DNA from: Escherichia phage vB_EcoM_SQ17
Sequence record: MW882907
Direction: 5' to 3' (one strand)
DNA: 64,000 nucleotides
Below the pieces are notes generated by a model. It searched no databases. It was not told the DNA's origin and saw nothing but the letters and a program-made list of their open reading frames with translations. Shown here piece after piece: positions 1-1,229 of this stretch. Every line of letters begins with the position of its first letter. The stretch's first letter is position 1. A program made the translations under genes and the position numbers.

Positions 1-15
1 TAATCAATTTAGCCA

Positions 16-378
16 TTATAGACTCTCAGTAAAGGTACGAGCGATAACATCGCGCTGCTGTTCCGGGGTCAGAGAGTTAAAGCGAACTGCATAACCGGAT
101 ACACGGATGGTCAGCTGCGGATATTTTTCCGGATGCTTAACTGCATCTTCCAGAGTTTCACGACGCAGAACGTTAACGTTCAGGTGTTGACCACCTTCAA
201 TTTTAACTTTAGGATGATGTTCAATTTCAATTTCACGGGCATTCAAACCGTAGAAAATTTCCGGGTCTACAATAGCGTCTTCTTTAAAAGTCTTAGAGAC
301 GATAATCCGGGCTTGAGTACCGTCTTCAAAATAAATAGTGCCTTTATGTGCACCTTCAAGAATTTGATATGCTTTCAT
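16..378 (-). CDS. autonomous glycyl radical cofactor (GrcA/YfiD-like)
   Basis: C-terminal ~60 aa ([60 protein letters not shown]) match E. coli GrcA from memory, including the RVSGY glycyl-radical motif; N-terminal half differs. Confidence 0.8.
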
Positions 379-384
379 ATAACC

Positions 385-690
385 TCAATTAGAAAATAAA
401 TTTATCCAAGTTTTTTCTTTAATCAAAAATGGGTCGGAATTAAACGCCATTAAACTTTGAGTGATTAATCCCTTAAATGGCCCATCAATAAATTCCATTT
501 TGAAATGCGGAATACTAGTCATCAACCGTGCATTAGGAGCAGTACAAAGAACCTGCTGCCCTGCGAACGGACCTTTAGTCAAACGATATCGTTTAGGTTT
601 AAAATGGTAAATCTCGTAATTTTCTACAAGAGCCCTTTTATTGCATACTGGGCTGTTATAACAATACTCAAAAACTTCAATAGTGGTCAT
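385..690 (-). CDS. hypothetical early protein
   Basis: ORF in track; start moved to Met overlapping upstream stop (ATGA); no recognisable motif. Confidence 0.4.
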   Translation of the reverse strand: MTTIEVFEYCYNSPVCNKRALVENYEIYHFKPKRYRLTKGPFAGQQVLCTAPNARLMTSIPHFKMEFIDGPFKGLITQSLMAFNSDPFLIKEKTWINLFSN

Positions 691-1229
691 CATTGCATTC
701 CAATCACAAAAAATTGAGGACGAGCAATACCGCCGATGCAATATTTGCTTTTGCAGCAGTACTGTACTGATTTAATATGGACATTGTAAATCTTATCCAT
801 ATCAGGAGCTTTAATAGGCTCGTCAATTATATACAGAATACGAGAAAGCGTTAATCCACGGAATTTAGAACCTTCATTACCAATAAAACTACGGACAGAA
901 TCAGTAAATAAACGGAATCGAATATCATCGCTAGAATAACGAGAAAATTCTTTTTTAATGTTGCCAGCAGAAATTTTAGCATAAGCTGAAGTATTAGAAA
1001 GAACAATAACTGTTCCACCATCGTGCAGCCAATTAGCGGCAAAATTAGTTACTGCAGTCGATTTACCCGATTGTCTGCCGCCGTCTAAACGAAGTGTACA
1101 GTACTGCTTGAGTACTTCTTCAAATGGCGGGATATAACCATTCTTACAAATTTCTTCTACTCTAGCATCAGAATGGTGTGTAAAAGCATTCATCAGGGAT
1201 AGATAAGGTCCAGTTAAAAATGTTCTCAT
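690..1229 (-). CDS. P-loop NTPase, function unknown
   Basis: Walker A GGRQSGKST and Walker B-like ILYIIDE in 179-aa ORF. Confidence 0.5.
   Translation of the reverse strand: MRTFLTGPYLSLMNAFTHHSDARVEEICKNGYIPPFEEVLKQYCTLRLDGGRQSGKSTAVTNFAANWLHDGGTVIVLSNTSAYAKISAGNIKKEFSRYSSDDIRFRLFTDSVRSFIGNEGSKFRGLTLSRILYIIDEPIKAPDMDKIYNVHIKSVQYCCKSKYCIGGIARPQFFVIGMQ

Follow-up and report, generated by a model that had tools for sequence, protein, structure and literature searches.

The grcA gene of Escherichia phage vB_EcoM_SQ17 is a mosaic of phage sequence and a tract from an Escherichia grcA allele

The gene for the glycyl-radical cofactor GrcA in phage SQ17 is a mosaic, in which gene nucleotides 1–178 and the last 10 nt belong to the phage lineage while nt 179–353 come from an Escherichia grcA allele. 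With high confidence we read the open reading frame as the GrcA ortholog of T4 vs.6, carrying a tract that would have passed from host to phage after both the host lineages and the phage genera Tequatrovirus and Mosigvirus had split. The gene and its function are already known from T4 at textbook level and nothing new is offered here on what the gene does; the mildly novel point is whether such exchange recurs. The window analysed is a stretch of 64,000 nt (64 kb) from sequence record MW882907, and the features that concern us, in window coordinates, are the following.

16..378, minus strand: grcA coding sequence (ortholog of T4 vs.6/Y06I), 120 codons plus TAA, placed by the open reading frame list, synteny and domain matches.
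201..378, minus strand: 5' part, phage-lineage sequence encoding the N-terminal half; gene nt 1–178, that is codons 1–59 and the first base of codon 60.
26..200, minus strand: E. coli-derived tract encoding the structured glycyl-radical domain; gene nt 179–353 (175 nt), with a minimal informative extent of nt 186–351 (window 193..28).
79..105, minus strand: RVSGYAVRF glycyl-radical motif, from Pfam PF01228 and the PflB alignment.
16..25, minus strand: phage-lineage 3' end, GAG AGT CTA TAA (last three codons and stop), unlike the E. coli GAA AGC CTG.
383..386, minus strand: Shine-Dalgarno GAGG, about 4–5 nt 5' of the grcA ATG, read from the sequence.
14..16, minus strand: ATG of a vs.5-like gene, overlapping the grcA stop (TAATG); the remainder of this gene lies outside the window.

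The reading frame runs from window position 378 to 16 on the minus strand, begins with ATG and encodes 120 aa. Over its first 3.2 kb the window is 98.4% identical to Escherichia phage S143_2 (Mosigvirus, RB69-like Tevenvirinae), whose orthologous ORF, inside the regB-denV block, bears the annotation autonomous glycyl radical cofactor. In T4 (NC_000866) the equivalent position is held by vs.6, which is annotated as GrcA and listed as Y06I in UniProt (GRCA_BPT4). The SQ17 gene thus shares the position that defines the vs.6 orthologous group, the regB-vs-denV early-gene block of T4-like phages, and vs.6 has been kept in six of six T4-like genomes (PMC1524935). Both proteins are 120 aa long and both genes lie between vs.7-like and vs.5-like genes; 52/60 residues are identical in the N-terminal part and 59/60 in the C-terminal part, or 111/120 (93%) overall. 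By synteny and identity, then, the SQ17 ORF is the vs.6/Y06I ortholog of an RB69-like (Mosigvirus) phage, and the relationship to T4 Y06I that the first-pass annotation had named is borne out. The Shine-Dalgarno sequence overlaps the TGA stop of the vs.7-like gene upstream, the 1-nt overlap between grcA and the vs.5-like gene is annotated likewise in S143_2 and T4, and the sequence downstream of grcA is of phage type. A scan for promoters and terminators near grcA gave nothing beyond the shuffled expectation.

The Pfam Gly_radical domain (PF01228) matches GrcA residues 59–101 with 67.4 bits against a cut-off of 22.2, and the RVxG[FWY] motif of the GrcA family, with its radical glycine near the C-terminus, is present as RVSGYAVRF. 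The radical glycine, Gly95 (GGT, window 96..94), corresponds to Gly102 of E. coli GrcA and to Gly734 of PflB. Residues 54–120 align to the C-terminal glycyl-radical domain of PflB (residues 693–759; E = 6.5e-27, PDB 1H16 and others), the segment that is lost upon O2 cleavage at Gly734 (PMC8683613). PflB carries a catalytic barrel, whereas SQ17 GrcA is a standalone 120-aa ORF between its flanking genes and has none, in line with the GrcA family, whose members are small (~14 kDa) and correspond to the last ~60–67 residues of PflB. A phmmer search matched the NMR structure of E. coli YfiD (PDB 6OWR) with E = 3.6e-42, aligning residues 21–120 to 27–127. The NCBIfam model for GrcA (TIGR04365; IPR011140) is matched collinearly over residues 18–120 with 159 bits (E = 6.3e-47), which narrowly misses the equivalog cut-off of 170 bits because the N-terminal half is diverged and scores 13.6 bits on its own; with this bacterial equivalog model narrowly missed, family membership rests on the other matches given here and on orthology to T4 Y06I. 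GenBank phage records label grcA variously as GrcA, pyruvate formate-lyase, acetyltransferase-like, 2-ketobutyrate formate-lyase or hypothetical protein, and this uneven annotation is probably due to a TIGR04365 score of 159 bits falling below the cut-off of 170.

The N-terminal half had at first been taken as unrelated in sequence to E. coli GrcA, a description that has to be withdrawn. It is 7 residues shorter than its E. coli counterpart, with 20/59 aligned residues identical (~34%), and homology is detected both by BLASTP restricted to the two N-halves (35% identity over 40 aa, E = 4e-6) and by phmmer to 6OWR, in addition to the collinear TIGR04365 match. Amino acid identity of this half declines from T4 (52/60) through Klebsiella phage Roth19 (42/60) and phage CC31 (39/60) to E. 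coli (20/60). On these alignments the half is a diverged homolog of the GrcA N-half that comes from the T4-like phage lineage. Residues 1–60 of YfiD are disordered and residues 61–127 are structured (PMC8683613), and the point at which SQ17 grcA switches from phage to host sequence coincides with the boundary so described.

The C-terminal half behaves quite differently from the N-terminal half. In a global alignment with E. coli GrcA (L001 447–830), phage residues 61–120 match E. coli residues 68–127 at 60/60 positions, RVSGYAVRF included, as the first-pass annotation had observed. That annotation also proposed that uniformly low nucleotide identity to host grcA would refute a recent recombination with the host gene; the alignment, anchored on the stop codon, gave instead a sharp maximum chi-square breakpoint after gene nt 178, identity being ~50% on its 5' side and 97% on its 3' side. 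Beyond the breakpoint the phage and E. coli genes share an exact run of 133 nt, followed by differences at nt 312 (window 67) and nt 330 (window 49) and by three more in the last three codons. Altogether 5/180 positions of the C-half differ, all of them synonymous, and only the two at nt 312 and 330 fall within the 175-nt tract. Base composition changes at the same place: the 5' part has 36% GC and 25% GC3 and resembles the neighbouring phage genes (window average 38%), while the 3' half (nt 178–360, tract included) has 49% GC and 41% GC3, close to E. coli grcA with 50% and 43%.

The limits of the tract were set against the nearest outgroup phages, Roth19, L165 and L166. Between nt 186 and 351 SQ17 sides with E. 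coli against these phages, while at nt 178 and before, and at nt 354 and beyond, it sides with them against E. coli. The terminal GAG AGT CTA TAA TGGC is common to the distant T4-like phages L014 and L019. When the whole 64-kb window was compared by megablast with 5,426 complete E. coli genomes the tract was the only match. No allele identical to the window tract was present among these genomes, the best reaching 96.4%, because SQ17 carries two private synonymous changes; in the sister phages L004 and L006 the tract agrees with an E. coli allele at 175/175 positions. A search for E. coli alleles identical to the tract of S143_2 or of the Tequatrovirus Killian likewise returned none (best 95.3% and 97.1%, respectively). 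Two variants in S143_2 and contig L164, 249A and 315A, had been considered as marks of a bacterial donor, but are absent from E. coli-like alleles and were reassigned as phage-borne. The pflB gene was also ruled out as the source of the tract, as PflB-type C-termini on pflB-bearing contigs differ at many residues.

Identity of a protein domain can be preserved by selection alone, and the first-pass annotation was right that constraint on the radical domain is strong. Bacterial GrcA C-halves differ from that of E. coli by 0–2 aa across Enterobacterales and by 0–4 residues among 80 species of Enterobacterales and Pasteurellaceae. The Pseudotevenvirus-type phages L014–L016 and Kp_GWPR59 encode the same 60 aa (60/60) and yet differ from E. 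coli at 30–31/180 nt (dS ~2), and therefore amino acid identity is by itself no proof of exchange. It could then be supposed that SQ17 holds an old full-length grcA homolog whose C-half stays host-like because the radical domain must fit PflB and PflA, with no recent exchange. Against the 30–31 differences of phages with the same amino acids, however, SQ17 has five and an exact run of 133 nt. On dS estimates that draw on 60 codons only, the C-half lies at 0.12 from E. coli in SQ17 and at 0.046 in T4, while between hosts the same half lies at 0.36 for E. coli and Citrobacter (13 nt differences) and at 1.0 for E. coli and Salmonella (29 differences). Bacterial orthologs thus diverge normally at the synonymous sites of this half. 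Their two halves do so to a similar degree, with C-half and N-half dS from E. coli of 0.045 and 0.067 for Escherichia sp., 0.36 and 0.57 for Citrobacter, and 1.02 and 0.80 for Salmonella, and there is therefore no special synonymous constraint on the C-half. The step in GC3 and the phage-type flanks also speak against an explanation by constraint only, which we consider very improbable. It is near-identity of the nucleotides, and not just of the amino acids, that leads to recent host-to-phage recombination, the first of the two explanations the first-pass annotation had offered. The dS values point to an exchange younger than the split of Escherichia from Citrobacter and Salmonella.

Identity alone gives no direction, and two-way exchange between host and phage has been reported for cyanophage psbA (PMC1484495), so the possibility that E. 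coli acquired the 3' half of its grcA from a T-even phage was weighed too. The C-half of E. coli grcA tracks the species tree, diverging from Escherichia sp., Citrobacter, Salmonella and others in step with its own N-half; its GC3 (43%) agrees with that of the remainder of the E. coli gene and not with the 25% of the phage, and the outgroup phages have a diverged version. Transfer into E. coli is on these grounds highly implausible. Synonymous divergence, agreement with the species tree and composition all point to movement from the Escherichia chromosome into the phage.

A junction between host and phage sequence could also arise as an artefact, through chimeric assembly or contamination. The gene lies at the edge of the window and chimeras are known at this same tract, as in metagenome contig L164. 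In SQ17, however, 25 nt of phage-type sequence come after the tract, made up of the final grcA codons and the beginning of the vs.5-like gene, and the same mosaic occurs in the T4 reference and in hundreds of independently sequenced isolates, leaving an artefact in this window with next to no probability. Contig L164 (OCHD01000040.1, 170,927 nt) had itself been taken up as a candidate for a second, longer transfer that included the E. coli grcA terminator, and was rejected as an assembly chimera. Around nt 915–1560 it passes, inside the 175-nt tract, from Mosigvirus sequence to E. coli chromosome (grcA terminator and eamB, 99.5% identity), the E. coli match continues to the end of the 1,560-nt stretch compared, and the gene is ~1.7 kb from the contig end. 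At 175 nt the tract has sufficient length to mislead both assemblers and tools for host prediction.

To follow the tract beyond SQ17 we compared about 1,500 phage records with a grcA-like match. The tract is at least 95% identical to E. coli in 642 of them and at least 99% identical in 252; only 3 records fall at 90–95%, and all others are at or below ~87%. All examined carriers of a host-like tract are Tequatrovirus or Mosigvirus. The grcA genes of T5-like and jumbo phages hold no host-like tract, with 44–63/180 differences from E. coli. A 116-kb record with a 100% tract (H119) was considered as an independent event in a T5-like phage, but proved to be a partial Tequatrovirus genome.

T4 vs.6 is a mosaic with the same 5' junction as SQ17, and the two phages differ at 21/177 nt in the 5' part as against 3/173 in the tract (Fisher p = 2e-4), or in terms of identity 82–88% in the flanks and 98% in the tract. 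T4 further departs from SQ17 in having the E. coli-like GAA at nt 354 and in the substitution R73H. By the contrast between tract and flanks, the tract exchange is younger than the Tequatrovirus-Mosigvirus split, so that the tract would have entered or been refreshed more than once, or else moved between phages. The same contrast suggests, without proving it, that there was more than one exchange with the host.

The simpler of these histories has a single transfer from host to phage, followed by spread between Tequatrovirus and Mosigvirus in co-infections and no repeated conversion by the host. T-even phages recombine freely, and most phages of both genera have in common the 5' junction and, at the 3' junction, nt 354 G and 357 T, a pattern that would fit a single origin. 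The divergence between Killian and T4 is 5.7% in the tract, matching the 5.3% of the flanks (the latter by BLAST). Three other observations go against a single transfer. First, the island of between-genus identity (at most nt 171–359) fits the host-homologous block (179–353) to within 8 nt per side; exchange between phages has no reason to stop there, while the fit is expected if host grcA was donor or refresher in each lineage. Second, no tract difference is fixed between the two genera, and the variants, all private, radiate like a star from the E. coli allele. Third, the Killian tract departs from the reference E. coli allele at 9 positions, and three of these variants (204A, 285A and 336T) are also found in a natural E. 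coli allele, that of strain LH50-c. On balance we hold a single transfer to be somewhat unlikely.

For repeated exchange as such we consider the chances about even. A fuller version, to which we tentatively give slightly less than an even chance, is that in T-even coliphages the 3' half of grcA undergoes concerted evolution with the host chromosome through repeated conversion by host grcA in lytic infections, bounded by the limits of homology, and that Klebsiella phages may do likewise. Were this so, conversion would proceed despite the degradation of host DNA by the phage and its modified cytosines, and the spare-part domain would be kept matched, silent sites included, to whichever Escherichia allele the phage meets.

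The Klebsiella phages provide a hint of host exchange outside the coliphages. Phage L165 (601–963) and Roth19 (L244 318–680) differ at 1/177 positions of the 5' part and at 11/180 of the C-half (p = 0.006). L165 also matches a Raoultella grcA allele (L121) exactly over 69 nt; in control bacterial pairs such runs have a 95th percentile of 35 nt and a maximum of 71. LLDAVEH, the variant typical of GrcA in Klebsiella, Raoultella and Salmonella, is also encoded by several Klebsiella phages. Matching of LEDAVKH or LLDAVEH to the host was rejected as a rule, as Klebsiella phage Kp_GWPR59 and Enterobacter phage CC31 mismatch their own hosts.

The copying of the tract may be pictured as homologous recombination (gene conversion) between host DNA and an ancestral phage gene. 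Pairing would have been possible only over the tract, as the sole stretch where the phage and host genes were similar enough; over this stretch the outgroup phages are today ~83–87% identical to E. coli. Conversion would have covered the whole alignable stretch and ended on one side at the diverged N-half and on the other at the last codons, which overlap the region where translation of the following phage gene begins.

Only two spare-part proteins have been validated biochemically, and T4 Y06I is one of them (PMC8683613). According to the work of Wagner 2001 (pmid 11444864), as related in PMC8683613, the PFL-activating enzyme installs a glycyl radical on both Y06I and YfiD, and both bind PFL that has been cleaved by O2 at Gly734 and restore its activity, and the same account has the N-half of YfiD aiding binding and activation. 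From its 93% identity to the T4 protein, SQ17 GrcA is predicted to be activated by PflA and to rescue O2-cleaved PFL in the same manner. The phage would make GrcA after host shut-off, host PflA would install the radical on Gly95, and the C-terminal domain would dock into host pyruvate formate-lyase that oxygen had cleaved at Gly734. Docking could restore the production of acetyl-CoA and formate and with it the energy supply in infection under the microaerobic conditions of the gut. Because a T-even phage shuts off host gene expression, a spare part of its own would keep host fermentation running when oxygen enters.

The arrangement in SQ17 combines the C-terminal 60 residues and collinear layout of E. 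coli GrcA/YfiD (6OWR), nearly identical at nt 179–353, with an N-terminal part of its own. The nearest parallel is cyanophage psbA and psbD, for which host-phage intragenic recombination was reportedly described by Zeidner in 2005. There too a phage-borne metabolic gene exchanges segments with the host homolog and has patchy GC. Like a psbA-type mosaic, SQ17 grcA has two segments whose nearest relatives disagree, a step in composition between them, and in one of them a synonymous divergence from the host close to zero. Intragenic recombination between host and phage with patchy GC is documented for the cyanophage genes (Sullivan 2006, PMC1484495); unlike these, SQ17 grcA belongs to a T-even coliphage, has a single 175-nt block bounded by homology limits, and is identical in that block to the present host allele at all but 2 synonymous sites. 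We found no paper describing a host-derived tract in vs.6, in a literature search mostly without subscription papers.

The gene offers a clean natural case of a strictly lytic, DNA-modifying phage with a 175-bp block from the host chromosome. The block is the sole one in 64 kb, and its position is exactly that of the structured domain, the part that has to dock into host enzymes. For measuring rates of host-to-phage gene conversion, T4 or RB69 together with a marked grcA would be a tractable system. The case also carries a warning, in that amino acid identity to the host is here no evidence of transfer, other phages having the same residues without the nucleotide identity. At a practical level the tract explains chimeric phage/E. 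coli contigs and inconsistent annotation.

A few further observations concern the gene and its surroundings. T4 NC_000866 (L163 4558–4920) has a private G218A change, giving R73H (LRRETL to LRHETL) in an otherwise invariant radical domain, and this substitution is not in any other phage or bacterium examined. In E. coli strain 1190 (L001 892–1437) eamB is ~8% off the common haplotype (L164, L249), while the adjoining upstream grcA is nearly identical; judged by this comparison, a divergent haplotype or recombination boundary adjoins grcA in the E. coli population. Within the vs.7-like gene of the window (385–693, minus strand) identity to T4 drops to 38–52% over ~120 nt, at window 541–660, in surroundings of 80–90%, and by this profile the segment is a local hypervariable or replaced one. 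Further along, three adjacent genes on the minus strand (1403–1732, 1771–2349 and 2413–2673) begin with nearly the same N-terminus, MKTYQEFI.E or MKMYQEFIIE, which we take to resemble the capsid-targeting sequence of T4 internal proteins. The middle gene (1771–2349) is internal protein III in the S143_2 annotation, and the three genes at 1403–2673 appear to be an array of internal head proteins.
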